A stretch of DNA of 63,725 nucleotides, counting the filler, from Collodictyon triciliatum (taxonomy: Eukaryota), in NCBI GenBank assembly GCA_043381765.1. It is 8 parts of 8 records of this genome, joined end to end, with 100 filler letters (N's around TTAATTAATTAA, not from the genome) between each part and the next. Parts side by side here need not be neighbours in the genome. Positions count along the whole stretch, not along the records: positions 26,321 to 34,987 come from JBHJMP010003332.1; 7 more parts are not named here. The stretch is one strand, 5' to 3'. The notes under the pieces are model-generated. The model saw only the letters and a program-made list of their open reading frames with translations. It was not told the origin of the DNA and searched no databases. Shown piece by piece: positions 8,679 through 59,899 of the stretch; position 1 is the first letter of the stretch; every line of letters starts with the position of its first letter. The position numbers and the translations under genes are program-made.

Positions 8679-8778
8679 NNNNNNNNNNNNNNNNNNNNNN
8701 NNNNNNNNNNNNNNNNNNNNNNTTAATTAATTAANNNNNNNNNNNNNNNNNNNNNNNNNNNNNNNNNNNNNNNNNNNN
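8679..8778. other. Artificial contig linker N44-TTAATTAATTAA-N44; identical copies at 17452-17551, 26221-26320, 34988-35087, 43751-43850, 52505-52604 and 59641-59740
   Basis: Seven identical 100-nt spacers with a palindromic core that gives stop codons in all six frames. Confidence 0.97.
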
Positions 8779-17319: not shown

Positions 17320-17551
17320 CTAGAGACAAAGTAAAAATATTTCGATTGATTCCTTTTCTTTTCTTTTCTTTTCTTTTCTTTTCTTTTCTTTTCTTTTCTT
17401 TTCTTTTCTTTTCTTTTCTTTTCTTTTCTTTCTTTCTTTCTTTTTTTTTTTNNNNNNNNNNNNNNNNNNNNNNNNNNNNNNNNNNNNNNNNNNNNTTAAT
17501 TAATTAANNNNNNNNNNNNNNNNNNNNNNNNNNNNNNNNNNNNNNNNNNNN

Positions 17552-17642: not shown

Positions 17643-20600
17643 ATGATTCGGCTCCAATGGTCGGCTTTTTCGCAAGGCTTTAGGTTTCGTGCACACCCTC
17701 GTAAGTTATCCTTTTGCCAACCTGATCCTTTTTCCTCTATTCTTTTTTCTTTTCTTTTTTCTTTTTTCTTTTTTCTTTTTTCTTTTTCTTTTTCTTTTCT
17801 TTTTCTTTTTTCTTTTTTCTTTTTTCTTTTTCCTCTATTATTTCAATATGGATTCACAGTAAGTGAAAACCACGAATACAAGGAAGCGCCTCAATCACCC
17901 CCCAGACAGCCATCCGGAGCCAGATTGCCGGAACGCAACGCAGCTTTTCGAGTCATATCACTAATATACATACGTCACGGCTTTTGAGTGCTAGACACAC
18001 TCCCGACTATGCGCAGCATACTCACTCCACATCATTTTCTAATCGAACATATCGGACACTGACAATATCGGGCGTGCGATGCATTCACACAGAACCAGAG
18101 CAAAATCCCACGATTCCTGGAGGTAGAGAGATTATACCATTTTCTTTGATATTTTCTCATCATCATTCTTACTTTACTATTCTCATACACTATGTGATAT
18201 AGGCTTTTCCACCTCAAGCCATAATGTTTTCTTCTTTCTTTTTTTTATTCTAATATCATGTTGTCTCATTGTTTTTATTTCCACTTCTTTTGAATCCAAA
18301 ATAATTACTTAGTGTATGACTTGGAGCTCACGTCCGAGTTTGTTAAGGATTTGACCAAAGGTGATTACTTAACCTGTTACAAAGTCCTGATACGGCTTCC
18401 AGGCACTAAAGTAATGGCCATTCGCTCTCATCATCTCCAGGTTACATATTCTTCTGGGATTCTAACTTTCTAAATGATTTTGATTCGATTTATGTCATTT
18501 ATAAAGGAAATGGGAAATTTAATAACTCGCATTAGCACGCATATGGAATTCAATTCAACTTGATGACATAAATAACTGTTTTTTTTGTTGTTGTTGTTTT
18601 TTTACAAAAATCATGAAAATATTCAGAATCAAGTGTTAATCTTGCAATTATTTCAACGCTAAACAGAGGCTGTGTCAAGGACTATTGGCCATCGGTGAGA
18701 CACACAAGGCCCGCTCCGTTCTTGATACCATCAAAAGGTATTTCGTCCGGAATACACGTTGCTTTGCAACTATTCATCACCATATAAAAGTCGCAATATG
18801 GTCTTAGAGTTGTAAGCCTTTTTTCCTCAAAATAATATACCCTTTAAGTGCCGTTGTATCGACATAGAATCTACTCTGAGGAATATCAGTCCGAGCCTTC
18901 TATGGTTGATTCTATGATATACTCCCTGGCTCGCGTCTATCGATGGGATGCAGTGTTTGACCTATATAGCGACCGAATGAATATGGCCCAGAAACCACCC
19001 ATAGATACCCATTTGACTGCCTTAAAAGCGTGTATAAAACTGAGGCGCTGCAAGGAAGCGGTGACAATCCTTGATTCAGTCAGAGCAGAGGACCCACAGC
19101 AGGTCCCAACAGATGACGTTCTCCGGTTATTTGCCTCTGATGCCCGTTGGGATTTGTGTGTCTACTTCCTTCAAGACGCGCTAGAACAGAAAGTTCCAAT
19201 ATCTTTAAAAACAATTACCGATGTTACAAATAAATACGTGGAGGCAAAGACATTTGGGCTCGTCGATAACTTACCTCGAACACTGCTGGAGTCTACATCA
19301 TCAAGTAGTCAAAGTGTTTTGCTGTCTCAAATGCTTCGCAAAAGTATTGTGATAGGCACACAGAAGAATGCAATATCTTTTGTTGAGCAAGCTTTGCAGC
19401 TAGACATGAAAATCACAGAGGACTTGTTGGTGTCTCTGGTAAACGCATACAAATCCGTCCACGGCATAGATAAGGCGGTCGAATACATGGAGATATTGAT
19501 TCGCCAAAAGAACTGGACACCCGGAAAAAGCTACCTTACAACTGTATGTGAAGGCTTCATATCCTCGAATGATTCTGTCAAGGCCATGGAAACTGTCAAA
19601 AAAATATGGCAAGGCCTTCACACCCCGCCCTCTGTCCTTTTGGAAGGTATTGCTCGTGTCTGTGGCAAAAAATGCCGCTTAGACTTGGGTATAGAACTCG
19701 TGGACTTGATGAAGCAGGCTAAAATGGAACCATCTGTCGTATTCTTCACAGCTTTACTTCACGGAGGTGCAAAATCTGAAAACTTGCCATTTTGTTTGGA
19801 TGTACTTCGACTAATGCAAAAGCACTCTGTAAACCCTGATTCAGTCGCTCTCTCTGTCCTCATCGATGCTTGTGGTAAATCCGGAGACTACAAAAAAGCC
19901 TCAGAGATATTGGGCATGATGAAGGAACTAGGTCTGCCTATGGGGATTGTAACATACAACTCACTTTTGAATGCATATTGCAAGGTAAATGACAAGCTGT
20001 TTTGCTAAATACACATAATAAAGCTCATATTTCAAGGGGCTGTTTTCTTTGCATACATCTCTGCATCCGGTACGTAATATTTTTATAAAGATATAAACTC
20101 CCTCTACTAGGCTGGCCTCGCTGACAGTTGCATTCGTTTGTTCCAAGAAATAGAAGAGAAAGGCCTGGAACCAACAGAAACCACCTTCGGAATCATGATT
20201 TCAGCGCTTTCAAAACAAACTTCAATCAAACTGTGCCGCATTTATCTTGACAACATGAAACATCGCAACCTCTCGCCGAATCTGTATGTGTACAACTCTT
20301 ATCTGGACGCATGTGCAAGAATGGGCGAATCTGATGAAGCAAGTTTATTAAAGTTCATCAGAATATATCAAACTGTTTCATTATGAATTTTTTTTTTTAC
20401 ATGCTACATTAATACCCCATCTTTTTTTTTTTTTTATGCAGAGCATTCGCATCATGGAGGAAATGAAAACCAACAATGTCCGGGCTGATATAATTACATA
20501 TACAAATCTTATTCGCACTTTTGCCTCCTCAAATAAACCTGATATGGTACGTATTCTAATCATATTCTAATTGTATGTGCGTAGCTTGAATACCACTTAT

Positions 20601-26132: not shown

Positions 26133-26468
26133 TCGGCTGTTTGAAGATGCTTTTCTTCCTTTTTTTTTTTTTTTTTTTTTTTTTTGGAAGAGAAAAAAAA
26201 TTGGTTTTTTTTTATTTTTTNNNNNNNNNNNNNNNNNNNNNNNNNNNNNNNNNNNNNNNNNNNNTTAATTAATTAANNNNNNNNNNNNNNNNNNNNNNNN
26301 NNNNNNNNNNNNNNNNNNNNAATAAAAAAAAGAGAATAAAAAAAAGAGAATAAAAAAAAGAGAATAAAAAAAAGAGAATAAAAAAAGAGAATAAAAAAAG
26401 AGAATAAAAAAGAATAAAAAATAAAGATTTTTTTTTTTACTCATAAAAATTGGAGAGAAGAAGCGTAC

Positions 26469-26534
26469 CTCAGTCGGTGCGTCGTCATCCTCTTCGTCAG
26501 GTCGAAGTTGTTTGGAGCTCACACGTTTCGACAT
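26469..26534 (-). CDS. First exon of a possible Nup50/Nup2-like nucleoporin (rest off contig)
   Basis: ATG-led exon MSKRVSSKQLRPDEEDDDAPTE followed by a GTACGC donor. It resembles the Nup50 N-terminus (MxKR..KQL..acidic). Only 22 aa are visible. Confidence 0.4.
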
Positions 26535-27021
26535 GTGGTCGTTATTTGCTGCACCGAATTTGAAGTTACGAAGCGCAGAACAGGAGCAGAGTGCAAAGTG
26601 GCACACTATTCAATCAAACTCGCACAGGACGAAGAGTGCAAGGAAAATTGCTTTGGACACAGAAACACAGGCCCATTCTTCTCAGAGCGGCACTCAAACA
26701 TCTGTGCTTTTCGGCCGAGCCGCGCTTGCAACTCAACCAGGCACCTGCTCGAAGCTCAAAGCCAGACAAATAAACACGATTCTGATTATGCGCTTCTGGG
26801 CAAACCAACAACGGCACAAACGCGTTTGACAAGATTGAACTTTATCTATTTCTGGACGGTATCTAATGCAGGGAGGAGGTGGGCGATAGATTGTCTTCTT
26901 TTTTTGTTGCGGATGGCGCCAGGGGTTGCCTGTCAGCAGTAATGGAGAAGGAGAAAAAGAAGAAGAAGAAGGAAAAAAAAAAGAAGATTAAATGGAAGCG
27001 ACCCTAGGTGTTCTTGGATTA

Positions 27022-29585
27022 TCAGAATCCTGATTGGTTGGTCTCTGCCATGGTCTGGTCGAACTCTGGGTAGGCATGCCCGCCGTGCTCCGTGCGGTCG
27101 AGCCCCTCCATTTCGATTTCGCGGGACACTCGAAGTCCGACAAACTTTTGAAGAGAAAAGAAAAGTGTTGCTGACAGCACGATGGTCCACACGGATATCA
27201 CTAAAATCCCAAGGATTTGCACTCCCAGCTGCTCGAATCCTCCCTGTGGACCACAACCAAAAGGTTGAGTGACTGCAACAGAAACTGGTACCTTCCAGAG
27301 TTTTTAACGACATTGACGGATGTCATGTAGAGAAAAAATGGGGCAGATAAAGGAAACAAATGTGAAGCAACGCAATATTAGTGACTAAACATGTAGACAT
27401 ACACCCATGAATAGTCCATAGGATGCGGGGCTTTTGCTGGTGCCGTGGAATTTTCGAATACAGTCCTGTGTGGCGAACAGACCGACACTCAAAACTCCCC
27501 AAATCCCACAAGAGCCATGGACAGCAGACGCACCAAGAGGGTCGTCCACCTGAAACTTCTCAAGCAGGTTCATCGAGACGTTGAACGTTGCAGCTCCAAC
27601 CACTGTATTTTTGATAAATAAATATGAAAATACATCTTCCCCCTCTTCATTCCATTCAAATTGCAGGAGGGTAAAGCCATATATGAAGACACATAAGGAA
27701 TATACTCAGGACCAATCATATATTGTAAAGACAAACTCATCAAAATTTCCCTTCTCACCCCCAATAATCACAGCCGCCCATGAATCAACAAATGCGCCGG
27801 CTGCTGTGATCGACACGAGTCCCGACAAAAGTCCATTCAAGACAGAGGTGAGGTCGTAAGTATTACTCTGGAACTTCTTCCACGCCAGTGTCGATAAAGC
27901 AGAAGCAGCAGCAGAGAGTGTTGTGTTCATAGCCACCTGTGCAAAAATGCTATATTTTCATATTTCCATACATATCTGATCTTGATTATCTTTTCATATG
28001 TTTAATTATACACAAAATCCAGCAATAGGTATTTAGACAGACTCTTCCGGCTATCTGCCACCGGTTTTGTGTCAACGCTAAAGTCGAACCAGGGCTGATT
28101 CCGTACCAACCAAACCAGAGAATCACTAAATATAATTCCACACATGATGAGGAGAGGATATGATACATAAAATCGACCTTACGGTTGAGATAATCATTAC
28201 ATGTCCCTAGTGATGACATCGTGATGGAGTGTCCTTCGATTTTATAGCTGCGATGGTCATCAAAGCGACCTAGACGAGGACCAACCATGATTGCACCGAG
28301 CAGACCAACCAACCCACCAACCTATCAAATCTGAAATGAGCTAATGACGCATCAAGTTATCAGAAGAAAAATAGACGTGATTCAGATTAAATGTGATGTC
28401 TGTAGACAAGAAGCCGTCTGGCGTTGATTAGAGGGTTTACCAAATGAACGACACCGCTTCCAGCGAAATCCAAGTATCCATTTGTGCCTTTGAATCTGTT
28501 TTCAGCATATGGGCTAAGCCATCCGGATTCAGACCAGCACCCTATGTTTGCAATGAAGCAGTTTTGACACCCTGGCTTTGGGGAGTACCAAAATATATCG
28601 CACGGTTCAGACACTCAATACCAAGCAGGATGAAAGACTCACACCGAACAATCATAGGATAAATAAACCCTGAAATAAAGAAAGTCGACAGCAGGTACGA
28701 TTTGAATTTGAAGCGCTCTGCAATACAGCCACTAAAAATGGTTGGTATCATGGACGCAAAAGCCCAGGAGAAAACCCAATGACCATACTGGTTTGTGGAC
28801 CGCATGAAAAAATTGTCCTCTCCAACAGCTGGATTTGACTTTCCTGTGTCTTTCTCGCCATAGGCAATACCATATCCAATAGCCCAGAATGTCATCGCCA
28901 CAACAGCCGTGTCCAAGATATTCTGCGAGAAACATGCAAAGTTGGTCATGTTAGCATATATCGACTATCAGAATTCGTCTCTATTCTGTACCAACGTCGT
29001 TTCCCCTCCTTAGGAAATTTAGATATATTTTATCTTATTTATCTTTGGAAGAGCGAGATAGAGCCTCACTTTCAGGAGAATGTTTTTCGTATTTTTCGCG
29101 CGAACTGAACCAGCCTCCAGCATTCCAAAGCCAGCCTGGGTGACTGAATAGAATGGAGTTCAATAATGATATGCAGTAACCAATGCATTCTTTAGAAAAA
29201 ATACACCGAATTACTTGGCTTTGGTCAAAACGAAATTTAAAAAAAAAAATATATGTCCGCAGAACAAGTGATGGTGAAGCTTACAAAAGACAAGGAAGGC
29301 AGAGAGCAAAACCCATGCGCTATTGACAGACATTTCTAAATCATTTGCGACACGCTGCAGTCCAGCAAGTGAGGCATCCTGGGCTGTGCAGGTAGGGCCG
29401 GAATATCCCTCTGGACAGAAACAAACATACGCGGCGTCGTTTTGAGAGGGGAGGCAGAAACCCACACCACACTCGGAGTTTTGTGTGCAGCCAAAGACTC
29501 CAAAGTTTGCGGTTTGGAGCAGTGATATAAGCAAAGCCGCAGAGAGCGTGATGCGCGCTCGTCCGTGCATTCTTTGTCGATCCAT
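27022..29585 (-). CDS. Ammonium transporter (Amt/Mep family, AMT1-like) with N-terminal signal peptide and EGF-like domain; multi-exon
   Basis: Motifs [98 protein letters not shown] and [19 protein letters not shown]. Stop at 27022-27024. Confidence 0.95.
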
Positions 29586-30047
29586 TATCCAACGCGTTTG
29601 TTGTCTGTGTGTGTCTTTGATTGGCCGTCTTGTGTATGCCGAGTGCGTTGGGCATAAGAACAGGTGGAATGACGAGTGTGTGGAGGGATGACAAACAATC
29701 TCCTTTTCCTTGGTAATTGATGAAAAATACAAAGAACGTAGCATGCTTTTGTGTAAAAATCTGCACATCAAACAAAACGCAGCCATTTAAGGATCCATTC
29801 CAGATTTGAAGATTTTCATTTGTGTCCTACTTTACCGCATTTGAAATTCAGAAGAATTGGTCAAATATGGATAATTACAGCAATCCAATCCAACTTGGAT
29901 TTACGATACTATCTATACGGTATTGATTACAGCTGAGGGCGCAGGCGCGGTGCTGTTATTGCCAGTATCTTTTGGATTAGAAAGCGAGAAACACAGCCGC
30001 CGAGGCTTTTATGTGCGTATGTTCATAATATTTATGACAGTAGATTG

Positions 30048-31676
30048 TTATTCCTCAACATAGTACGTGTTCTCTTGATAGGCCATGACCTGATTTTGGG
30101 CTGCCTGTTGTGAAAGAATCGACGTGGAGTCTGGTTTCTTGCCTGGCATTTTGCTGATGACATAAATCAAACATACGGGCGGCAGGATTTCGCAGAAACG
30201 GTAAAGATACCTGGATAGCAGAAACTTTATATGTGCACTTGTTTCTTCTTTATGATAAAATTTGCATGTGATATGGAGTAACATACAAAATTATGATATT
30301 GCGCGGATAATCGGCTGTGTCCTGTTGGAGGTCCTCTTCAACAAAGAATGAGGCCGAATCGATGGTTAAGAGTGTTGCATAGATGGTCATAAAAGTACCG
30401 GTAATAACGGCCAAAATGTTGAACTATAGAAGATCCTGTTAATAGAATTCCACGAGGAAAAAGGGAAGGGTAAGAGCATAATGCGGAAGATGACAATAAT
30501 TCAAAAACGAAATATTTGATTTATCTATAAATTGTTCATAATACATCAAATGGATATATTTGTTCAGTTACACGTACTCTTCTCAGGGTTGAGAGATATA
30601 TCTGTAAGGAGGGTATGTGCCGGTGGCCAAGCCTTTCAATTTGAGAGGATATTTTGTAAAATGCACCAAAATGCCCGCAGAAGATTAGGACCAGAAGGGT
30701 GTTGAAAGCGGATATGAATATGTTTGTGGCGGCCCGAATCTGTAACGAAATTCATAATCAATTCGCGGGTTGCCAGGGTGAAGTCAAAATACAGAAAACT
30801 ACTCACCACAAATATTTCCATCTGATTAAAGCACATCAGTATAATTGTCAATATACATCCAGAAACATAAACAAAAATAAAACTCTTTCGAAATTTTTCG
30901 TATAGAAACGGGATAGTAGCCAATGAAATCTGGTCGGAGATACCGTCCGCGACTCGTGACCTACAGGATTCTTCCTTTGATAACCACATTGAATAACATG
31001 TTTAATCCTATTTCTAGCTTCGAAATATTTACCAAGGGTGGATGATGAACTTACCAAAAGTAAAGCAATGATGAGTACGAGAGGTACATAAAAACCAAAG
31101 GGCAAACGAAGAAAAAGTGCTTGATTGCAGTTTGATAATGAGGCTCATTTCTATTCTCAAAGTTGTTGTCATACATCAGCTCGCTCAACCGACAAACAAA
31201 CTCTATTATTCGAACTGCGTAAAAGTATAGATGGTTTAAAATTTTATATCAAACTAATGTCAATAGAGTTAAAAAAATACAATGGCATCATATTTGTTTT
31301 TATTGTTGCATTGAAAGGAAATCACGGAGTAAAAAAGGAATAAAAAGAAAGTGATAAATTTATATAATCGTATTCAGAGAACCTGTAGCATTCAAAAAAA
31401 TCATCTGATAAGAAAACTCTCGTCTAGAAACTGATATTCTGGCACATATGAACAGGGCGTGGCAGGTGAATGTGCGTAATTGCCCTTTGTCGAGCCGTAT
31501 TTTGGCAAACAGGTGTAAAGCTACAACCCACAAAGCAATCATCACGGAGAGCCAAATGACGCAGTAAATCCGTATTGTTACTTCATCTTCATCGTCCGCG
31601 GCATCTCCTTTGTGTGTGCGGTTGAAGCTAGTAACATAGTCCGGATACATCCACGGAGACACAAAGTTCGTGTAAC
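30048..31676 (-). CDS. Multi-pass (about 7TM) membrane protein, TOM1/THH1 (DUF1084)/GPR137-like; start uncertain
   Basis: In-frame exons give about seven hydrophobic segments, including PLVFMYLSYSSLLYFWSRV and a last helix YLYRFCEILPPVCLIYVI. The family call rests on pattern only. Confidence 0.55.
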
Positions 31677-32157
31677 CTGCTTAGCTGTCTTTAAACAAGA
31701 ACCGCAAACATAGTCAGAAGGAGAAGCAAAAACGATGCAAGCTTTCTTCAGAGCTTTTGCAAGAATGGTGAGTATCGAAGATTCACGTTTTTACAGTTTT
31801 TTTCTGTTTCTTTTTCTTCCTTCTCTGGCTCTGCTGGTCTGCGGAAAAGGGTTGCCCGATCACAGTTTGCACTTTGATCACAGAACCCTGGTGTTTGGCG
31901 TGTGGTAGGGATTTATGCAAAGCTGGTTGACTCAGTTTGCTCCTCTTTGACAGCGACTTAAACAGCCGCATTAAATGAAAGAATGACGAGCACAGCCCAT
32001 GTCATTGTTTTCACGCTTTGCCGAATACACAGCTGCGGCGAGGCCCAACCACAGAGAATCGGCACTTGTGATCAGAAACGTCAAAACAGGGAAATGAGTT
32101 TTGTTGGGAATGCAAGCTGCGCAACGGTTCTGGTAATGGAATGTGTGGAATTTTATC

Positions 32158-32188
<31 letters not shown>

Positions 32189-32286
32189 GAAAAAGAAAAA
32201 GAAAAGGAGTCAGGTGGGCGTGAAGGAGTGCTGGGGCGTTTTGCAAAGAAAGTGGGTGCGAGAGGGATTATGAGATTCCATGCCGT

Positions 32287-34806
32287 TCATGAGCTTTGGT
32301 CTGATTCTGGGGCGGCGGCAACCTCAAACTTGAAGCCTTTTCCCTCGCGAAGAGAACGAATCATTTGGTTTCCAAAGAGAACAACAGGGGATAATACACC
32401 CCCACGAGGGCGTACTTGGTGCTATTGATTGCCGCGCAACAACAGAGACATAAAAGGCAGAAATGAATCCCAATCGCAAATTTATGATGGCAAAGACACA
32501 TAGAATTGTTTTAACAGGGCGCTTTTCGTCTTTCAATCACGCTTCACAGAGAACATATTTAGAATGGTTTTACCTCCGAATAGAAATATTGTCTTACCTT
32601 GTGCTTATGGAGCAGTAACGCGGTTTCTACGGCGATAATAACAGAGCCATCATATAGATTTGGAGAGTATGCAGTTATCGAGATGGTGGAATCACGAAAT
32701 GATGATGTTGGCGTTGGGTTTGGGTTTGTGTCTTCTGCCTGGAGAAGGGTGTGCTCTTGAACTCGCCCGCTCATTACAACTGTGCAACGCACAAAACCTA
32801 CACCGCGCTCCACACTGGTAGGCCTAGAATCATTCATTTTTCTTACTGAATCAAATGCATTACAAATAATTAACTGAGTAGACACTTTAATTTTTTTTTA
32901 AAAAAAGATCATAAGTGATAAAAAGTAAAAGAGTTAGTAAACATCTAGTGATACGATAAAACATATCAATTTACCCAGCTTCCGAGTCCGAGTTCCGAAA
33001 TGGTGAATAATGGTATGAAAAGTAATCTACGTGATTATAAAATTGGTTTGTAAGTTTAGTCGAATCAATGGGAGGATTGTTAGAGAAAGTGATAAAGTAA
33101 TTAAGTGTGGCCTTTACAATTTGCATTAACCTTAAGGAAACATTAAGGACAGCCCAATTTATACTCTGTATATCCGCAGATAATCCACAGATTATTTTTT
33201 TTTTTAAAAAAAAATACTCACAAAACCCTGACATGAGGTAAGATATCATGAGCTTGGCAAGTGATTCATATTCTTGGTAAGATTCGTAGACAAATGATGG
33301 GTCAGTATTCTGCAGCTCGTTTGTCCTTCATTTTTTTAAAAAGGTTTATCAGGTGAAAGGAATACATACAATGACTCTAGGTATCTGAAGGGAAAAAAAG
33401 GGAGAAAAAGGGAGAAAAAGGGAGAAAAAGGGAGAAAAAGGGAGAAAAAGGGAGAAAAAGGGAGAAAAAGGGAGAAAAAGGGAGAAAAAGGGAGAAAAAT
33501 ATTTGAAGACACTCAATTATAGCTATTAAACCTTGTTACAACCAGGTCATGAACTCCAAAGTTCCTTTTCACCCACTTTTTGATATCTTCATCAAACATA
33601 AATTTTCTTGAACTACCAGATTGCACAGTTTCGTTCTTGCATGATGCATTACAAAGAATTATAAATGACTCGTTTGTGACACCGGAAAAGAAATTATCCA
33701 CATAACGTTTCGACACAATCATACCCTTTGTTGTGAAGAGCTGGTTGACGCCTCCGACATTATACTATCTAATGAAGCTTGGCTTCTTCTGATTGGAGTT
33801 GCATAGATGTAGCCCTGCAAAGTATTTGGGTCACTTCTTTGTAATTAAATAAGTCATATTTTATATATCTGCTGATACATACACGAATCACATCTATCTA
33901 TATATCTATGTGAAAAGTTTGAGAGAGCAGAAGCAGCAAGGGATGTTGAGATTCGGACCCTGGCTGATAAACAATGTCCGGTTGTGAAGTGTTCTTTTCC
34001 GTGGTGGACAGCCATGTCAGGAAGAATCTTTGCAAAGTATGATGAGAGTGAAGTATGCATATTTATAGTATGGATTATGAATGCATGTTATTGCAAAGTA
34101 TACTCCAAGGTTTAATTATGAGAAGATTCCTAAATCCGGTTATAATATACGTACAGATGTTACGCCGCACGATGGCAGCAGGTATACACCCTTTGATTCT
34201 GCTTCTGAATGGTACTTTGAGGCGATGTCTCCAATAAACGGTATTTCTTCGCAGAAATCTATGTAGTTTGTGCGCGTCTCGATGCATATTTTAACGAGCG
34301 ACTCTCCGTGGTTGTGGTATGGGCTAGTTTTGGTGAATACGAGCCGATTTTATCATTACTATCAATAACAGAATGGGTGCTAGAAAGTGGATTGAACTAC
34401 AGCGAATATAAAAGTGCAACAAAACTACTTCAATCATGATATCTTAAGAAAGTGTTGAAGATACTAGATAGAGGGCAATAACAAACTACAAACCCAACGC
34501 AATTGATAATACAGGATGTTTGCAAACACATTTGTTTTAATGATTCTTCACTTCTGATATCCGCTTCAATGATTTTGAATAAGTCTGGCCATGGTAGGTT
34601 TCTTTTCTAATAGCAAAAGTGGCTTAAGATGAGCTAATAATAGAGAGACAGAACGCCTATATGATAACCAAGATAAAAATAAAGATGCCTGTAGTTGCTG
34701 CGAAAGTTGCTGCAATTTGGTGAGATTGCGTCCGGCAATTGTCCACATGATCTGAAATTGTACAGGGAGCGCCGCAAGGTACTCTGCGACGAGTTTCCCC
34801 ATGCAT
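32287..34806 (-). CDS. Saccharopine dehydrogenase-like oxidoreductase (SCCPDH-like), multi-exon, 5' partial
   Basis: MGKLVAEYLA...WTIAGRNLTKL, CIINCVG|PYHNHGESLVKICIETRTNYIDFCEE, GVYLLPSCG and C-terminal GGVLSPVVLFGNQMIRSL...FKFEV. Confidence 0.8.
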
Positions 34807-49986: not shown

Positions 49987-52900
49987 AAAAGAACGTGCCT
50001 TGAACGATTTTCATCTAAAAGGAGAGGTATTAAGGAAACAGTATATGAAATTTTGTGGGTATGAGGAATTGGATGTTTTTTTTTGGTTTTGTTTTGATAT
50101 TTTGATTGGGAGTGTGCTTTGTTCTTAAGAATTGTCTTGACGTTTTTTTTTTTACAGACACCAAAGCATATCAATCGAAGTGGTTATGATTTCTTGCTCA
50201 ATTCTTTTCTATAAACTACAATCATAATAATATTCGATAGATATTCCAGTTTTTAATTTATGTATCCTAGAATAATTTCATGAACATCGACTGCTCTTCT
50301 TCGTTTAATTTTTAATACTGCCACTCGATTTAACTGTAATTTTATTTTTATCAGGATTTTTTATTTTCGATATCTTTATCGTTTATAAATGACTATGACA
50401 AGGTGTATTATGTTTTCATGAAATTCAGATATATATTTGAATCAGTATCAAGTCCAGTTTTCTTTTCCAAATGAGTATGAGGTACTCTGAACCAGGTAAC
50501 TAAGATAAACATATCACTAAAGAAATAAAAAAAAAATTAGTAACTATGAATAAGTTTCTAGAATAATAATGGGCCTGTTAGCTTATAAAAATCTATATGA
50601 TTGAAATAAAAATCTTTAAGGTTTATATCTACATATATTTAGGTAAGAGAAATCCTAACATCAATATATGCATATTGCCATCTCACACATGGATATACTT
50701 TTTTACATTTGTTCAATTTTCCAAAAAAAAAAAAAAACCCTCAATTTGTAGCGGCTCAGTCCTATTTATGCTTCATTTACGAAAAAATGATGGGCAGTCA
50801 TTCTGAAGTATGTCAGTCATGTTGAAATATACTAGAAATCTTACTAGCAGCAATTTACACACAATGTGTCTCATCGATTGCATAAAATATCAAAAATGGA
50901 GAAGAATGCGTACCTGCGTTTCTGATTCAGATATGTCAGTACCATTTTTCTCTGATATTTTTATATTATGAATATTTTATTCAAAGAATTTTCATTCTCA
51001 AAGTAAGGGAATTGTTTTTTAAAATTAAATTAAAGTTTACTACTACTTTGAGTCGGGTCAGATTAACTTAAAATACTAAGCCTGTTTCTCATTTAAGGTT
51101 TATATTTAAATAACAAATTTTCAGTGCTATTTGGCTAATGTGTGGCTATTCACCTAATTTTGGTTTATAATTACGGTCGATTCTTCTTTTCTAAGTGAAG
51201 TGACAAGAAAGGAATTTCAATGACATGAGCTTTCTGTTGAACTTCAACATCCATCAATAATAGTCTTTGTTATGGGGCTCAGTCACACAGAAAGATGTGG
51301 AATGAATCCAAGAAAGAGATTAAGCCTCGCCTTATCTCTCATGCAAGCACTAGACCCAGGCTACAAGCCAAACTGCAGGACGCAGTTCCTGATTACCGAA
51401 TACTTCTCCGCCACCTGGCCAGCAAGCAGTGTCATGCAAACGATGGCCAACGAACCAAAGCCAACCTTTTCACCATCTTGCACACAATTGAAAGGAAGAA
51501 TAATAAACGGTTTTTTTTGTTTTTTTGTTTTTTTGTTTTTTGTTTTTTGTTTTTTGTTTTTTATTTTTTATTTTTTATTTTTTATTTTTTATTTTTTATT
51601 TTTTATTTTTTATTTTTTATTTTTTATTTTTTATTTTTTGTTGTTTAAGCCGTTTTTACAACATCTTGTTAACAGCCTTAAAAATGATAATAAAATAATG
51701 ATATGAATTATTATAAAGATGAGAACAATTGAAAGGAAGAATAAAAATAAAAATAAGAGAACTAACATAATACGATTGTATTAAATGTGGCAGTGATTAT
51801 AATAGGAATACGAATAGGAAGACGAAGACGAAGACAAAGACGAAGACAAAGACGAAGACGAAGACGAAGACAAAGACGAAAGAGAAGAATGGATGACACC
51901 AAGAAAACATGTAGAACCTAGATATGTTTTTGGAGTTAAGGCTCCATCAGTCAGTTACCTTGGAGTAGATAGTAGGTACTTTCTCATACAAACGACTATC
52001 AATCACAAATTCATTTTGTAAAGTAGATAGTATTCGCCCAAATGCGACCATTTTCTTGTGTCCTACAAGAGGCTGGTATCAAGAGCAGCCAAAGGAATAA
52101 AAGAAAGGAGCGATTAATTTGAAAATCATCAATTTAAAGTGAATAATGTTTCAATTATTAGGAATTGATAAGGTGCGTATCATAACAGAAAATATTAAGG
52201 GTTCTTTGGTATTAGTGACTCGGCGGTTTGTTTTTTGTGTGATTATTTTACATTCACTATGACTAATAAGAAAAGTACAACTACGTTCATATGCGTTTTG
52301 GTCATATTTGGCAACCTTGTTACTGTTCGTCCAGCATATTTCTTAATTTTCACAAGAAAGTGGTTTAACTCTTTTTTACTCTTTTTTTACTCTTTTTTTA
52401 CTCTTTTTTTACTCTTTTTTTACTCTTTTTTTACTCTTTTTTTACTCTTTTTTTACTCTTTTTTTACTCTTTTTTTACTCTTTTTTTACTCTTTTTTTAC
52501 TCTTNNNNNNNNNNNNNNNNNNNNNNNNNNNNNNNNNNNNNNNNNNNNTTAATTAATTAANNNNNNNNNNNNNNNNNNNNNNNNNNNNNNNNNNNNNNNN
52601 NNNNTTTTTTTTTTTTTTCCCCCCCCCATGCCCAATTTTTTATTTTTTTTATTCCCCCCCCCCCCCCCCCCCCCAAGACTAATTTGATTATTTTTTTTTC
52701 CTTTATTCGATTCAAAGTAGACTAATTTGATTATGAAATAGCGGCAGAGAGTAGCGACTCGAGGATGTTTTGGTACTCTGTCTTTGAAGTGTGTGTGCTG
52801 GGCGTCATGAGTGCATGGCAAGTTTGGACATTGAAGCGCCTGTTTGAGTCTAAATCTTGGTTGTGAGAGTTTGTGTGTGGGCTACACAGCTCCCAACCCC

Positions 52901-53352
52901 ACCGAAGGGATCGAACACCACCACTCTAAACATAAAAATCTGGCACGAAAATCAAAATGAATAAAAAAAAAAATAAAAAAAAAACTGGAAGAATGCGTGC
53001 ATGAGTGAGCATACTCACATATGTTCAGTGATGCCAGAGTCAAATAAAAAAAAATTGTTCTTCCATTCTTTTTTATTTTCGAGGAGGTCACAGGGACTCG
53101 TCTTTTCCTACTCTGCTGTTCCTTTTTTCTGATATTGTTGCTGCTGGTGGGGCAATAGGGAGTAGGGGTGGAGAAAAAAAAAGAAAAGAGAAAAAGAAAG
53201 AGATCAGGGTTGAAAGAAGACGCACTTGCAGCAGAAGGATGGGATTAAAGGCAGAGAAGATGAGGATGAAAGGTAGAGAATCCCTTTAGCAACAAACAGT
53301 AAGAGACCAGTGGAAAGATAAGGAAGAAGCGAAAGGAAGGTGATAGAGCCTC

Positions 53353-56300
53353 TTAGTCATCACCAGCAAAGACGGACTGGGGTTGGGACGGGGCAGGGGT
53401 GGGGATAGGGGCACCAGGGTTTCCAAGGAGGCCGGAGGCAGCGCCAAAGAGATTGATGGGATTGTTTCCGTTTGTGAGGACGTAACCCTTGAGGCCGAGA
53501 CCCGAGAGGAGCTTGGCCTGGAGTTCAGGGCCAGCGTTTGCCATGGCACGGATGGTTTCTGGGCCAATGGAGCCGACGATGTTTCCAAACTTCTTGGCCT
53601 CGATGGTGGCCAAGTCGCGGGCCTTTTTAATCTCTAGCTCGATAAGGCTGCGCTCGTGGGCGATGTCTTCCTCTTGTCTAGCCTTGAGCTGGTTGAGGGC
53701 TGCATCAGCTTCGATTTCGGATGCCTCTGCCTTGAGCTTTGCGATTTCGACGCTCATTTGACCCTCGATGTCACGGGCAGCGGCACGGGCCTGAGCAGAG
53801 CTGGCGGCACGACCTGAATGAGGAGATTGGCAGAGCGAGTGAGTGAGTGAGTGAGTGAGTGAGTGAGTGATAGGAAATTGTGAAAGTTTTATGCATCTCT
53901 TGCTTTCCTTTTCTTTTCGTTATATATAAATTTTAGAAAAAAAGAAGAAAAAAAAGAAAGAAAGAAAAAAGACCTTTGCTCTCGATCTCTGCCGAGTAGC
54001 ACTGAAGCTGGAGCAGCCTTTCGCGCTCCTGCTCGGCTAGGGCCTGATCCTTGATGCGCTGGCGCTCGAGTTTTCCTTTTGCCTCTTGCTCATTGCGCTC
54101 GGCCTCGTGGCGTGCGGAGGCCTCTTGGGACTTTGTGGTAATTTCGATGGCGAGCTGGACAGACTTTTGGAGGGAGTCGCGCGTGCGCTGGTCGACAGGC
54201 TCGACGCTCTGGATATCGATGTTTGTGACCTTGAGGTTGTTTGCAGTGAATGTGTAGCTGTCGCGGATGCGGCCGGCCTCGTCCTCGCCAAAGACGGCAG
54301 CGCGGATGACGCGGGCGGAGGAGCGGTGGAAGGTGTCGAAGGGGGTGGAGGCGACGGCGCCGCGGATCTTGGAGGCAATGGCCTTGCAGGCGTCGCCGAC
54401 AAAGTCCGGGACCTGGAAGAGCTGTGCAGCCTGGGGCGGGGAGGCGCGGTCGATGTCAAACTCCCAGTTGTAGGAGAGCTGGAGCTGGAGGCGGGCGTGG
54501 TCGGAGGTCTCGACCTTGACGATGTCTGTCATAAAGTCGGGGCCGAGCAGCAGGCAGAGGGAGCGGATGGTGTTTGGCTTCTTGGGCTTGCCGCCGGAGA
54601 GGGAGAGGACGGTGAAGTGCTCGTCGGGGCCGAGCATGACGAGGTCGGGGCCGAAGACGACGCGGGCCTGCTTGTCCTTGTAGTCGTAGATCTGGGCGGC
54701 GGCGTTGTGGGGGACGCGGTAGGTGACGACGGCGGAGCGGGTGCGCTGGACAGCAGGGGGGGCGGCGGCGGGGGCGTTGCGGGCGGCGGCGGTGCGGTCG
54801 GCCAGGGCGTTGACGCCGAGCAGGTCCTCGACGTCCTTGGGCAGGTCCTTGTCCCACAGCTCCTCGTTGGCCAGCAGCATGTAGCTCTCGCCCTTGACCA
54901 TGCGCACCTTGCCCGTGCGGATGTCGCGCACGTAGATGCCCTCGTTCTCGTCGAGGGGGATGGCCTTGCGGCGCTCCACAACCTCGACCTGGACGGGCGG
55001 CACGTAGTCGGTGGCGCCGTAGACCATCCAGCGGTCGCCGGGGCGGCGTTGGACGGCAGCGGCAGCCTCTTGATCGTGCTCTTGATCGTGCTCTTGATCG
55101 GGCTGCAGGGGCCGCTCCGGGGTGGCGTCGTCAAAGGCCTCGCGGGCGCGCAGCAGCAGGGCCTCGTCCTCGCCCAGCACGTAGACGTCCTGGATGCGGT
55201 TCTCGAGGCGCTCGCCCGGGCGCAGGAAGAAGGCGCGCTCGCCCTTGCGCAGCTCGCGCTGGCCCAGCTGGGGCTTGCCGCGGGCATCGACGGGGTCGAG
55301 GACGACGCAGTACTGGCGATTGGTCAGGACGGTGATGGGGACGTCGCCCAGGACCTCCTCGTAGACGTCGGGCACGTGCGTCTCGGCGTCGGCCAGGGTG
55401 ACGAGCCACTCCTCGCCGGCCTTGCGCTCCTTGCCAAAGACGTCCGTGAACGTGCGCCCCGCGCGCAGATGCAGGGCGGCCTTGTCGGTCAGCACGGCCG
55501 CAGCCACGGTCGCCACAACCTCCTCGTCCACGTCCGGCAGATACGCGCCCGCCTCGCGCACCAGCCACTCCTCGCCCGCCTTGCGCTCCTTGCCCTGCGC
55601 GTCCGTCAGCGCCTTGCGCGCCCGCAGCCGCAGCGCCGTGTGCGGCTTCACCACGTGCGCCTTGACCGTCTCCACCACCCGCACCGCCACATCCGGCAGG
55701 TACGTCCCGGGCCCCCGCGCCAGCCACTCGTCCCCGGCCCGCCGCTCCCCGACATCCCGCAGCGCACGCAGCCGCAGCGCCGTGTTGCGCGCAATCTGCG
55801 TCAGCTCCGTCACCGCCTGCTCCACGCGCTCCCCCGGGTACAGCGCAAACGGCGCCTGCGTCAGCCGCACCTCCTGGTCCCCGTGCCGCAGCCGGTACTG
55901 CCCGCTCCGGTCCTTCACCGCCTCCTGCCCCTCCGCCTCCCGCACCACCGGGTTGCTGATCACGCAGTAGTGCTGCGGCGGGATCGTGATCTGCACCCCG
56001 CGCCATCATCCCGCCGCGTGACCGTCGGAGCGGTGCAGAGGAGAGGAGAGGAGAGGAGAGGAGAGACAAGACAAGACAAGACAAGACAAGACAAGACAAG
56101 ACAAGACAAGACAAGACAAGACAAGACAAGACAAGACAAGACAAGACAAGACAAGACAAGACAAGACAATAGAAAGAAAGAGAAAGAAAGACAGGCCAGT
56201 TAGCTTTCTTACTTTCTCACAACACTATGTTTCTTTTTCTTTTTCTTTTTCTTTTTCTTTTTCTTTTTCTTTTTCTTTTTCTTTTTCTTTTTCTTTTTCT

Positions 56301-56666
56301 TCTTCAAAAGTAACGAAAAGGAATCAGGCTTCGCTCACCATGGGCTCAGGCCCAAGCACGAGCTGCTCATGCTCCATGCGTGTGTATGTCCGCGGTCCGC
56401 ATAGCACTTCCGTCACGTTGCTGTTGTTGTCCTGTGGTGTTTTGTTTGTTTTTTAAAAAGTTTTCGTGTGAATATTTGGTTGTAGAGTCCGAGGGAGGAA
56501 AGAGAGAGGGGGAGGAAGGATGGAAGGATGGAAGGATGGAAGGATGGAAGGATAGAAGAAGAAAAAAAGGAAAATAAAGTACCAGTAAGTGGATGTAGTG
56601 GTACGGCTTGATGCGGATCACTCCGGGGGTGCTGTTTGCGGCTGCTGCTGCGGCGTTGCGTGACAT
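53353..56666 (-). CDS. MVP: Major vault protein, 4 exons (56666-56583, 56431-56339, 55990-53974, 53813-53353), about 884 aa
   Basis: [33 protein letters not shown], repeated RxAGEEWLV vault repeats, [56 protein letters not shown] and [17 protein letters not shown]. Confidence 0.97.
56038..56169. repeat. Compound microsatellite (GAGGA)n/(ACAAG)n in MVP intron 2
   Basis: Directly visible. Confidence 0.95.
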
Positions 56667-58535
56667 CCTCCTTGCTTGAGTCTTTGTGTCTGTCTTTGTG
56701 GTGATGGCGATGGGTGAGTGAGTGAGTGGGTGGGTGAGTGTTTATGTTTGTCTTTGTCTTTGCGTTTGTGTCAGGGTGGGGAGGTGGCAGGGCTATGTGA
56801 GGGATCGGGTGAAGGGCCACGATGGAGTCAAATGACTCTGCGAGGGTCTTGTTTGTGTCTCAGCCTTTGCCACCCAAAAACAGGAAGCTTGGTTGTTTGA
56901 GGAAAAAGAGTGGTGTTTGGCGCCAAGTGGATGGTGGCGTGGACAACAAGAGAGGGAAGGAGAGGAGGTGAAGAGAACAGAGTGTCCTTGTATTCATCGC
57001 AAGTTCAGTCGTACTCGGGTTCTGGCATACGTTACAGTGTATGTGTGTGCGTGTGTGTGTCTGTGACAAGGAGGGAATGGAGAAGATGAAGGGAAAGTGA
57101 ATACGATGCTCAAGAGTCTTTTATACACAGTAACAGACATCTCGTCTTGAATTCGTTTACTTTTTCTTTTTTTTCTTCGTTTGTTCTTTGCCATCCTTTT
57201 CTGTCTTTTTCTCTCTTTCTCTTTCTTTCCCTTCCTTTCTTTTCTTTTCTTTCTACTTCTTTGGACGTAGTTGCCCTCCTGAAATGAAATTAATCGTGGG
57301 TCATTCGCCAGCTCACCCATGATCGGCCTATGAAACACCGCACAACAACAGACCAGGTGCCTGCGACGTGTTTGTGTGTGGGTGGGTGTTTTTTTATGTT
57401 GTGTGGATGTGTGCTGTTTGAATTCAAGATCTTCAGAAGTGGATCAGAATGGCTGAGATTCACCCGATCACAGGCATAATTGTGTCGCGGGGGGACACTC
57501 CCGCATCTGTTTCTTTCGGGATTCTTGCTCAGTTCCATCTTCCTCCTTTGTACTTTATTCTTATTTTTCTTTCCTCCTTTCTCTTCATCTCTCTCTTAAC
57601 AAATTCATTTTTATTGAATGGGAAAAACTCTTCGCGCAGTCGCGTTCACTCATATATAACCCAGGCGCACACCCAAAAGCGAACAGAAAATTCGGTTCAG
57701 CCTGCAAACGAACCAACAACCTCGCTTCTCAATTGCGCAATTACTATAGAAAAAAACAACTATATGTAAATTTTCGAATCCAAAAGCCCATCACACATTG
57801 CAGGCGTTCGGGAAATTGGTATATATATAGGTTGTCACTATCTGGAGTGTTTGGTTTTCCACATTAGCGTAATTTCAGCAAACTCCGAATGAGAATCGTA
57901 CAATATCATGTCCTCAAATATTCTATCATGGGTTCTCACTATGAGGGATTAATGACCTTATTCCATGGAAGTTGTACTAAAATGCTGAAATGCTTAGAAA
58001 ATAATTGTGTTATTTTCAACATATTGACGAAATGTCTTGCGTCCCCACAAGTAAAAGTTAAAGCACAATCTTCTATTGTATTTTATCTGTTATTGTACTA
58101 TATTTAGATATTAATATTATATAAATTCAATTTAATTACTTCTTTAATTTATCTCAGGTTAAGTATGTAGATAATTATTATAATATCCAGATATGACATG
58201 AATAACGTGCGCTACTCCCTTTGCCCACAAGAAAAAACCCAGCCGTTGCCGTAAACAACCCGCTGGCCGTACAAACACAAACAACACGAAGAAGCATCGT
58301 AAGAGTCTCTGCTGATATATATATTTTTTTGTAAAATCGACTAAAAAATGGGAGCAAACCTAGTGGAAAGGGGCGCCATAAGGACTAAAAGATTTTTTTT
58401 CCCCCTTTATTCGATCCAAAGTACAGGGACTAAAAGATATAAATGTATAATATCAGTCAGTCTAGTGTTCTACTTTGTATATTTATTTTTAAGGAGTCTA
58501 GTAAACCACAATATTTTGTTCTTTCTGCACAGAAC

Positions 58536-59562
58536 ATGAAGGTATTCAGTGACGAAGAAAGGCACACTCTGCAAATATTGGTATATTGCTCCAGTTCTCT
58601 CTCTATATTGGCCTGTTTACTGGTGATATTCTCTTACATGCGGTTTCGAGAGATAAGATCTATTTCCCTCCGCATCGTCTTCATCATGGCAATGTCTACT
58701 TTGCTCATGGCCATCGGGTTTCTGATGACTGCATCGTATCCGAAAACTGGCATTGACATATCAAAGTCATCCATGGGTACAACTTGTCTCATTCAAGGTA
58801 GTCTATTGAAATTTATCCACCATCCCCTCTCCTCACTCCTTTTTTTTTTACCACCTCACCTCATTATTCCCATCATCTATTCCTCTGAAGTATTATCTCC
58901 TCCCCCACTTGATTCTCCTTATCCTATGGACTTAAGTAGATGGCTATTTCTGTCATTTTACTATAATTAAAAACAGTACATTCTCTTCGTAGTTTGAATC
59001 AGATGAAAACAAATTAAATTAGTATCTATATTTAAACATCCATCTCATGAATCGATTTTCTTCAATCGTAATTGTAATTGTTATCTTACATCTAGCCCCG
59101 ATTAAATGATTTCATATCACACCTCCTACAATCACTTTTATTTTGGAATACATATTGTTTTTAAAAAATATATAAAACTGACCAATATCGTATTCCAGCG
59201 GCTCTTATTCAATTCTTTAGTTTGGCATCAACCATGTGGATGATGGCGACCGCCGCAATTCTATATCTATGCATATCAAGTTCTGAAACTCATGTATGTA
59301 ATTTTGTGAAGTTTCTTCCTAATGGTTGATAAAATATCTCAAAATAAGTCAGTTGAAAATGAAAAAAAAATCTCGGTAAAATTTCGATACCAACAAAAAG
59401 TAAAAGCAATGATTTCTTTGATTCATAATAAAAAAAATCCATCTATCTGATACCACAGGTGGGAAAGTTAGAACCCATATTCCACATAATTGGATGGGGA
59501 TACCCTGCCATAGGGTTGATTGTCACTAAATTAGACGATGGGTTAGGTCCTGCTGGGGTTTG
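58536..59562 (+). CDS. G-protein-coupled receptor, cAMP-receptor (CAR)/GCR1-like; TM1-4, 3' part off contig
   Basis: SSLSILACLLVIFSY, RIVFIMAMS, CLIQ|AALIQFFSLASTMW, FHIIGWGYP and GPAGVW match CAR/GCR1 family motifs. Confidence 0.85.
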
Positions 59563-59899
59563 GTATTGAGACACTTTATAATTCAATCCCTTCTCTTGTC
59601 CCTTTCACCCCCCACCCACCCCACCCCCCCCCCCCCCCCCNNNNNNNNNNNNNNNNNNNNNNNNNNNNNNNNNNNNNNNNNNNNTTAATTAATTAANNNN
59701 NNNNNNNNNNNNNNNNNNNNNNNNNNNNNNNNNNNNNNNNGCCTCATCCGTTTCTTTAAATGTATTAGCCATGACCCTACTGGTTTGCCTCTATGGGGTT
59801 AGCAAGGTTGCATTCACGAGAAAAAAAATATCACGAAAATGTGGCGGTGGAGTTAATGGATCTTCAAGCAACAGGAACACCCGGCTTTTCTTCTTTTCT

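Follow-up and report, generated by a model that had tools for sequence, protein, structure and literature searches.

Amt/Mep/Rh proteins are among the most conserved of transporters, and the elaborations that we have seen described for them are cytoplasmic: PII binding, control exerted by the C-terminal tail, and kinase or cyclase modules fused to the C-terminus. A locus in the genome of the protist Collodictyon triciliatum (GenBank assembly GCA_043381765.1) raises the question whether this scaffold has also been elaborated on its outer face. Within a stretch of 63,725 nucleotides made up of eight parts of that genome (hereafter "the window," to which all coordinates refer), an initial annotation made by eye had read the start of a minus-strand gene as an ammonium transporter (Amt) fused to a signal peptide and to an extracellular module resembling epidermal growth factor (EGF). 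Here we ask whether the fusion is a genuine property of one gene, whether the module is EGF-like, whether the fused core has the residues of a transporter, and what the arrangement might do. The results indicate that the gene is likely to encode a modular AMT1-like ("cluster 2") ammonium transporter with an EGF-like module on its extracytoplasmic N-terminus.

One exon joins a signal-peptide-like start, a six-cysteine module, and the first Amt helix

The gene occupies 29585-27022 on the minus strand and comprises nine exons, whose spliced coding sequence (CDS) of 1560 nt is in frame and yields a product of 519 aa; all eight introns are GT-AG introns, 75-159 nt in length. Exon 1 (29585-29285; donor GT at 29284-29283, phase 1) is read in one frame, with zero stops, from its ATG through the EGF module and into the first transmembrane segment (TM1) of the Amt. 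The 100 residues quoted in the initial annotation (the start, the cysteine module, the linker, and the MSVNSAW.. start of TM1) are the translation of 29286-29585 on the minus strand; the interval given for them, 29283-29585, stands as the location of a single-exon fusion, but its first position sits 2 nt inside intron 1, a trivial discrepancy. The features of the gene are:

27022..29585, minus strand: whole CDS, 9 exons, stop included
29585-29285, 29143-29070, 28922-28643, 28541-28441, 28321-28201, minus strand: exons 1-5
28125-28043, 27936-27759, 27602-27403, 27243-27022, minus strand: exons 6-9, exon 9 including the stop
29490..29585, minus strand: signal-peptide-like start, residues 1-32 (from sequence and Kyte-Doolittle hydropathy)
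29388..29489, minus strand: EGF-like module, residues 33-66, with six Cys and a CxCxxGYxGxxC ending
29322..29387, minus strand: linker, residues 67-88, predicted to be helical and continuous with TM1
29285..29321, minus strand: start of Amt TM1, residues 89-100 plus 1 nt, ending at the exon 1 donor
29744..29786, minus strand: upstream in-frame ATGs at 29786, 29768, and 29744, with no stop between them and the CDS
28097..28099, minus strand: codon 302 (ATC, Ile), the inner Phe-gate position, an exception relative to homologues
26321..34987, no strand: contig piece holding the gene, 8,667 bp, with a spacer on both sides

Downstream of exon 1, exons 3, 7, 8, and 9 each match the Amt profile PF00909 (42.8-56.5 bits, against a cut-off of 23.2), covering profile positions 37-130, 224-281, 284-331, and 343-399, respectively, and in blastp alignments the spliced protein is collinear with full-length Amts from residue 81-82 to about residue 510. 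The last exon stops ~15 residues past its PF00909 match and has no Pfam match other than PF00909. Base composition distinguishes the exons (GC 0.43-0.53) from the introns (0.27-0.45) and from the upstream flank (0.38-0.43); the signal-peptide, EGF, and linker parts have a GC content of 0.51-0.55, and in these parts neither of the other two frames has as good a codon score as the annotated one. The codon score of codons 1-84 is -3.5, as compared to -16.9 for the upstream region 29586-29786 (GC 0.43), which, judged by GC content and codon score, does not look coding. No coding-looking open reading frame (ORF) is present in the ~5.4 kb upstream of the gene (29800-34987), and the entire gene lies within the single contig piece 26321-34987.

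The six-cysteine module is EGF-like in sequence

The cysteines of the module (C33, C39, C44, C55, C57, and C66) follow the pattern C-x5-C-x4-C-x10-C-x-C-x8-C, with ..GY.G.. between the fifth and the sixth. Both the spacing and the CxCxxGYxGxxC ending are as originally claimed, and a six-frame scan with a regular expression places the module at 29489-29388, the sole EGF motif in the 63.7-kb window besides two translated microsatellite artefacts at ~60.4-60.6 kb. The profile comparison that had been proposed as a check bears out both parts of the fusion: PF00909 is found on the four exons named above, and PF00008, the Pfam EGF profile, is found on the module with 22.6 bits (E 1.3e-4; cut-off 21.5), residues 33-65 aligning with positions 1-32 of the 32 positions of the profile. 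The margin over the PF00008 cut-off is small, both for this module and for the module of the Diphylleia rotans protein P0016 described below.

Database searches point in the same direction. When exon 1 was compared by phmmer with 1.84 billion representatives, 13 proteins matched at E<=0.001. Ten of these contain from one to twenty six-Cys EGF-type repeats, and none of the 13 has an Amt core; one match, P0006, is a Cys-free repeat protein and hence spurious. In a sequence search of the Protein Data Bank (PDB) with the module, 22 of the 24 matches at E<=1 (best E 0.0075) are EGF-module proteins, including modules of Agrin, Notch, EGF, and heregulin. Structure prediction was carried out at two scales. 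A single-sequence AlphaFold2 model of the 100-aa exon 1 product has a mean pLDDT of 64. A model of a 46-aa piece has a mean pLDDT of 71.8 (core 77-81) and two small hairpins (strands 14-18/23-27 and 32-33/38-39), the eight-row alignment behind it consisting of EGF repeats themselves and biasing the model towards the EGF fold. When the 46-aa model was compared with the PDB by use of Foldseek, all 46 matches listed were EGF-containing entries, with a best E of 0.076 and rmsd of about 2-3 Å over 32-42 columns; none of the 263 matches reached E<=0.001. The models are consistent with an EGF fold and fall short of independent proof of it; the sequence-level EGF assignment stands.

The module does not appear to belong to the calcium-binding subclass (cbEGF). 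By eye, C33 is preceded by V-F-G, with no acidic consensus, and EGF_CA is not among the seven Pfam families listed, no search aimed at EGF_CA having been made. We take the cbEGF consensus to be D/N-x-D/N-E/Q before the first cysteine together with a hydroxylation-type motif between the third and the fourth; consensus sites for O-glycosylation are likewise absent on reading the module sequence. EGF domains pair their cysteines C1-C3, C2-C4, and C5-C6, in an oxidising (extracellular or luminal) compartment. A neighbouring multi-EGF gene was considered as an exon donor and set aside: the window contains no other EGF motif, and the 5.4 kb upstream contain no coding-looking ORF.

The same order of parts is present in a second gene, from Diphylleia rotans

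A homologue search with exon 3 ("longer" lengths) gave one match among 16 candidates, the Diphylleia rotans protein P0002; a search with P0002 in turn listed 120 Amts, among them a second D. rotans protein, P0016 (EP00002_P030126), which has two further isoforms, P0135 and P0136. P0016 is a "complete" TransDecoder transcript ORF of 506 aa, unannotated in its source. Its parts are those of the window protein in the same order: signal peptide, six-Cys module, linker of the same length, and TM1 of an 11-TM Amt. Pfam finds PF00008 at residues 23-52 (23.8 bits, above the cut-off) and PF00909 at residues 79-491, and no extra C-terminal domain. The two proteins are 53% identical over 505 columns (blastp; residues 16-519 of the window protein, 12-506 of P0016), and the alignment is gap-free from C6 to TM1, the linkers being equal in length with zero gaps. 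The modules are identical at 14 of 34 positions, including all six Cys and three Gly; the signal peptides are identical at 5 of 32, and residues 1-32 of the window protein align with the start of P0016, M1, Q4, and R11 being common to both. P0016 differs from the window protein in having a shorter signal peptide, in having the canonical F-N pair at the inner Phe gate (I-S in the window protein), and in having Ala at the position of window Met85, such that it has no start codon just before TM1. The claim that the fusion is not an artefact of the splicing model is confirmed both by the single open frame of exon 1 and by the presence of the same junction in P0016.

The other D. rotans protein, P0002, is 71.6% identical to the window protein over 345 columns. 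Its resemblance to the window protein breaks off precisely where window introns 1 (29284-29144) and 8 (27402-27244) lie, which suggests that P0002 derives from an intron-retaining transcript and that these intron positions are common to both species. In a FastTree phylogeny of 121 rows, from which the two extra P0016 isoforms were omitted, the window protein and P0002 form a pair (support 100) to which P0016 attaches (support 99), and the resulting clade lies inside a 23-row group with the other named eukaryote sequences. P0002 is the Diphylleia orthologue of the window gene, and P0016 is placed as a paralogue of the lineage of the window gene because the window protein is nearer to P0002. On these alignments, the architecture is very probably real, and no fewer than two genes of a Diphylleia-related lineage have it in conserved form.

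Two observations concern the surroundings of this clade. Besides the Diphylleia proteins, the top-scoring relatives are mostly metagenome proteins and Amts labelled Chloroflexota or Dehalococcoidia, with 46-51% identity; these rank level with or above the named eukaryotes, and the tree still puts the clade with eukaryote-labelled rows. Within the eukaryote-containing group, P0133 and P0121 have a signal-peptide-like start, a short two-Cys segment, and then TM1, with no EGF by Pfam; small Cys-containing N-terminal ectodomains are thus present elsewhere in this group of Amts.

The N-terminal parts are arranged as expected for an outward-facing module

Residues 1-32 of the window protein consist of an Arg-rich n-region, a hydrophobic core of ~12 residues, and V-F-G ahead of C33; the Kyte-Doolittle mean over 11 residues exceeds 1.6 at centres 15, 17-19, and 21. 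The ATG at 29585, which has A at -3 and G at +4, is the start codon that we infer for the gene. In the single-sequence AlphaFold model of exon 1, a helix extends over residues 68-99 (pLDDT 60-79). The linker also carries an alternative Met85 (ATG 29333-29331), three residues ahead of the conserved NSAW of TM1; on the full exon 1 this codon is preceded by five ATGs, two of them in frame (29585 and 29570) and three out of frame (29428, 29377, and 29344). Bacterial-type homologues begin to align at window residues 81-82: in these proteins a signal-peptide-like start leads into a short acidic segment, and it is this segment that aligns from residue 81-82. The parts of the window protein are topologically coherent: a signal-peptide-like start, a putative disulfide module, and the TM1 of an Amt having its N-terminus outside (N-out). 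A position of the module in an extracellular or luminal compartment would follow from this start together with the N-out topology of Amts (PMC10433425).

The Amt core retains pore residues but departs from the family at the inner Phe gate

Six core residues of the window protein, W219, D243, H251, S306, H408, and F180, are identical in all 122 homologues. We take W219, S306, D243, H251, and H408 to be the equivalents of W148, S219, D160, H168, and H318 of E. coli AmtB (EcAmtB), a correspondence for which the alignments to sensor Amts provide indirect support only. Given its profile matches over the core and the presence of the Trp and Ser of the recruitment site, the Asp, and the twin His, the protein qualifies as a member of PF00909. 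The twin-Phe gate, however, is incomplete: the outer F180 is present, and the inner position is Ile302, followed by Ser. At this site F-N is found in 121 of 122 homologues, P0016 included; the exception is the Diphylleia protein P0002, with L-S. In alignments, sensor-Amt structures show ..GWFGFNGGS.. at the inner-gate site. Judged by sequence comparison, Ile302 would lower confidence in canonical transport and would leave family membership intact. Mutants of the inner Phe behave differently in different Amts: EcAmtB F215A is reported to be inactive and F215L to be strongly reduced, whereas AtAMT1;2 F271A is reported to be fully active (PMC6856177), with normal transport and less isotope discrimination (PMC6856177, PMC10433425).

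A second feature of the core bears on sensing. The N1/N2 signature QX6EX15NX2D[F/T]X54-60TX2[S/T] is matched by window residues 103-189, in exons 2-3 (regular expression), and is matched strictly in only 3 of the 122 homologues, P0016, P0135, and P0136, which are the EGF-bearing isoforms; in most other homologues the residue following the signature Asp is A, V, C, or G rather than F/T. The signature has been proposed to mark ammonium receptors or bifunctional receptor/transporters, and plain plant AMT1 proteins carry it too, according to passages of PMC11152129. Pfam finds neither of the transducer modules of an ammonium receptor (AmR), that is, a cytoplasmic histidine kinase or a HAMP plus GGDEF module, and we do not file the window protein as an AmR because a fused cytoplasmic transducer module is absent. 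The inner-gate change and the N1/N2 match together may keep a sensor-like reading alive; they prove nothing.

The architecture appears to be rare

The six-Cys EGF pattern occurs in 3 of the 122 Amt homologues, all three being isoforms of one gene (P0016, P0135, and P0136). A metagenome scan with P0016 gave at least 599 Amt loci, and the 80 highest-ranking ones were retained; a regular expression for TM1 matched only 40 places, and the loci were therefore scanned whole. None of these best 80 loci has a six-Cys EGF motif ahead of the Amt, four regular-expression matches and one signature match in the 80 loci lying elsewhere. A metagenome scan with the exon 1/P0016 alignment gave 123 pattern matches, none of which was confirmed by tblastn, and a search with exon 1 for longer homologues gave 310 candidates, none at E<=0.01. 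The ESM Atlas returned no usable match for exon 1 and, for P0016, plain PF00909 clusters only (scores 0.81-0.82). The possibility that the architecture is already widespread and annotated, raised at the outset, is not what these counts (3 of 122 homologues, 0 of the best 80 metagenome loci) show. From these sequence surveys, the EGF-Amt architecture looks rare.

The initial annotation had also put the architecture forward as one not known to be described. Full-text searches of the literature found no description, and in that respect the claim stands; the architecture is not unique, however, as an unannotated Diphylleia transcriptome protein carries it, and an earlier listing among the N-terminal-module Amts of PMC11152129 is possible. 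One paper from the literature search, on coral genomes, mentions both terms, but separately, and was set aside. The accompanying statement that known Amt fusions are C-terminal was too strong: passages of PMC11152129 state that Amts with "N- or C-terminal fused modules" exist.

Alternative readings of the locus

We regard it as very likely that the order signal peptide-EGF-linker-Amt is real. That it is an artefact, whether a chimeric assembly join or a chance Cys-rich stretch ahead of an ordinary Amt gene, might be suspected of a window that consists of short contigs joined by spacers and of an assembly of modest quality, but the entire gene lies inside one piece (26321-34987), both modules pass the Pfam curated cut-off, and the Diphylleia rotans transcriptome gene, at 53% identity, has the same junction and aligns without gaps across it. 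Because two genes, from two independent data sets, one a genome and the other a transcriptome, share the junction, an artefact is ruled out for practical purposes, and we consider it extremely improbable. A different objection is that the junction is real and the working transporter is nevertheless made without the EGF module, transcription or translation starting downstream at Met85 (MSVNSAW). The module would then be part of a 5' leader, be confined to a minor isoform, or survive as a relic in decay. Met85 is three residues ahead of the conserved TM1 start, and bacterial-type homologues align only from residue 81-82, both of which are in accord with such a start. An untranslated relic, however, would not be expected to keep 84 open codons, six Cys, and an EGF match that passes Pfam; the GC content and codon score of codons 1-84 are exon-like; a scanning ribosome on the full exon 1 would meet five ATGs before Met85; and P0016, with no Met at this position, has the module inside a complete transcript ORF. 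We judge a Met85 start to be unlikely. We hold similar doubts about the converse possibility, in which uncleaved residues 12-24, or a start at an upstream ATG, would provide an additional helix (TM0) and a cytoplasmic N-terminus, as in Rh proteins, the EGF module then being the first extracellular loop. The frame is open back to 29786 and contains three in-frame ATGs, the one at 29786 having A at -3 and G at +4, and the first prediction for the AmtB pre-protein likewise included a twelfth helix, as noted in PMC10433425. Against a TM0, region 29586-29786 is unlike the exons (GC 0.43, codon score -16.9), P0016 begins at the homologous Met, and a hydrophobic core of ~12 residues is short for a membrane span.

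The remaining alternative concerns function. The initial annotation proposed a ligand- or adhesion-coupled transceptor. In such a protein, the three EGF modules of a trimer would serve for reception or adhesion, and the gating of the Amt core, or its signalling, would depend on whether a ligand, prey cell, or partner cell occupies them. EGF modules are, as a matter of general knowledge, typical protein-interaction units; the N1/N2 signature is present in the window protein and in P0016, and among the 122 homologues only the EGF-bearing isoforms match it; the inner Phe-gate residue of the window protein is unusual; and the closest solved structures by sequence are those of sensor Amts (8qpf/8qj3 and 6eu6). 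However, there is no partner, coupling path, or cytoplasmic transducer domain, the C-terminus being a short tail; plain plant AMT1 transporters also carry the N1/N2 signature, as stated in PMC11152129; and P0016 combines the module with a canonical Phe gate, so that the module and the gate change are not linked. We consider a transceptor improbable, if worth keeping in view. A specific outside-in form of it, in which the EGF modules would bind an extracellular or phagosome-luminal partner (prey surface, mating partner, or matrix protein) and thereby alter vestibule access or the conformation of an AmR-type core, is a long shot. If true, it would couple ammonium sensing or flux to cell contact, a regulation of Amts from the extracellular side for which there is no described precedent.

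Several results weigh against the reading of the gene as an EGF-bearing ammonium transporter. The phmmer search with exon 1 recovered neither P0016 nor another EGF-Amt; the structural support for the EGF fold, coming from predicted models, is weak in absolute terms; and the nearest relative, P0002, is uninformative on its own N-terminus, its ORF beginning inside the apparent retained intron 1. Three more in-frame ATGs lie upstream of the assigned start, at 29786, 29768, and 29744, and could serve as alternative starts on an mRNA with a more distant 5' end; Met85 could start an EGF-less isoform from an internal promoter. At the level of function, transport may be changed or diminished by the presence of Ile302 in the inner Phe gate.

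A model for the EGF-bearing ammonium transporter

According to the reading that we favour, that of an ammonium transporter with an EGF-like ectodomain, the hydrophobic start would target the nascent chain to the endoplasmic reticulum and would be cleaved near G32/C33; if uncleaved, it would form a twelfth helix, with the same outcome for the EGF module. The module would then fold on the outer or luminal side and form three disulfides. Amts being N-out trimers, the outer vestibules would be surrounded by three modules, each on a helical linker of ~22 residues. The transporter core would still bind, and would probably conduct, ammonium in the manner of plant AMT1. AmtB provides a parallel for the N-terminal processing, having N-out topology and a cleaved signal peptide as described in PMC10433425, and Mep2 provides one for the placement, its N-terminal extension contacting extracellular loop 5 in the adjacent monomer as described in PMC10794816.

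As to the role of the module, our guess, which has far less support than the architecture, is that it is most likely a passive, disulfide-stabilised ectodomain that would stabilise or cap the outer face of the trimer, as proposed for the extended N-terminus of Mep2, or would dock the transporter to a partner at the surface or in a lumen. A gate operated by a ligand is less likely than such a structural or docking role, given that the protein lacks a transducer domain and that nothing points to a partner. The simplest history would be that a single EGF unit was inserted after a signal peptide that was already there and before the pre-TM1 segment, because bacterial-type homologues already have both.

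Other features of the window

The window is a chain of separate contig pieces (about 8.65-8.67 kb, then shorter) joined by 44N + TTAATTAATTAA + 44N, which constitutes a six-frame stop spacer. The spacers lie at 8679-8778, 17452-17551, 26221-26320, 34988-35087, 43751-43850, 52505-52604, and 59641-59740; the ends of the contig pieces are poly-A/T or other low-complexity sequence, and genes on either side of a spacer are not necessarily neighbours.

Four features on other pieces are of note:

53933-56005, minus strand: block of 69% GC within a piece (52605-59640) that is otherwise ~30-45% GC; its 690-aa open frame has four kinds of Major Vault Protein (MVP) repeat and the MVP shoulder domain (Pfam E 1e-20 to 1e-59)
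46057-50010, minus strand: intron-free open frame of 1317 aa, with an N-terminal WD40 propeller, a multi-span hydrophobic C-terminal half, and ~ten ephrin-receptor-like Cys-rich repeats (PF07699, 206 bits)
18848-20008, plus strand: PPR-repeat open frame (PF13041, 68 bits), an ordinary eukaryotic gene
37908-38100, plus strand: exon with a weak match to an AMP-binding enzyme (18.9 bits, below cut-off), likewise of an ordinary eukaryotic gene

The jump in composition at the MVP block could mean that the gene itself is of odd composition, that it was transferred, or that the contig is chimeric. The 1317-aa frame is an unusual pairing of a normally cytosolic propeller with repeats of extracellular type.

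Significance and comparison with known systems

Three folded domains per trimer, disulfide-bonded and placed on the outer face beside the substrate vestibule, would elaborate the Amt scaffold in a different way from those known, and EGF-Amt would be a practical construct with which to test whether the activity or location of an Amt is open to control from outside the cell. The locus is a documented case in which an EGF-type module has been shuffled onto a polytopic transporter outside animals, in a deep-branching Diphylleia-related (CRuMs) protist lineage. The natural change from Phe to Ile or Leu at the inner gate in this clade is, in addition, a ready-made variant for the debate on the need for this residue in electrogenic AMT1-type transport.

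Compared with EGF modules of the hEGF type (Notch, EGF, heregulin, coagulation factors), the module has the same six-Cys spacing and the same CxCxxGYxGxxC ending, and its predicted structure, which is hairpin-rich, is consistent with theirs; it differs in being a single copy on a polytopic protist transporter and in lacking a calcium-binding or O-glycosylation consensus.

Among other Amts, plant AMT1 proteins of "cluster 2" (AtAMT1;1-1;3, LeAMT1;1) have in common with the window protein the PF00909 core, an N1/N2 signature, and a topology that is N-out and C-in; the motif ..D.T.HGG.AY.. in the short tail at the C-terminus of the window protein presumably resembles the AMT1 regulatory tail. Plant AMT1 proteins differ in having a short, unstructured extracellular N-terminus without a folded domain and in keeping the inner Phe. 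The sensor Amts Ks-Amt5 (6eu6) and Sd-Amt1 (8qpf/8qj3) are the best solved-structure matches for P0016 and P0002 (E 2e-65 to 1e-45) and, like the window protein, are modular Amts of the N1/N2 class. Their modules (histidine kinase; HAMP plus diguanylate cyclase) are described as C-terminal and cytoplasmic (PMC11152129, PMC5764959), whereas the module of the window protein is N-terminal and extracytoplasmic and has no transducer domain. The E. coli AmtB pre-protein, as described in PMC10433425, has a signal peptide ahead of an N-out TM1, and many of the bacterial-type homologues retrieved here start similarly; AmtB differs in having nothing between the signal peptide and the pre-TM1 segment. 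Fungal Mep2, finally, also has an N-terminal extracellular extension, which is the best available guide to the placement of the EGF module; it has 20-25 residues, no disulfide-bonded fold, and no signal peptide, and belongs to another Amt cluster.

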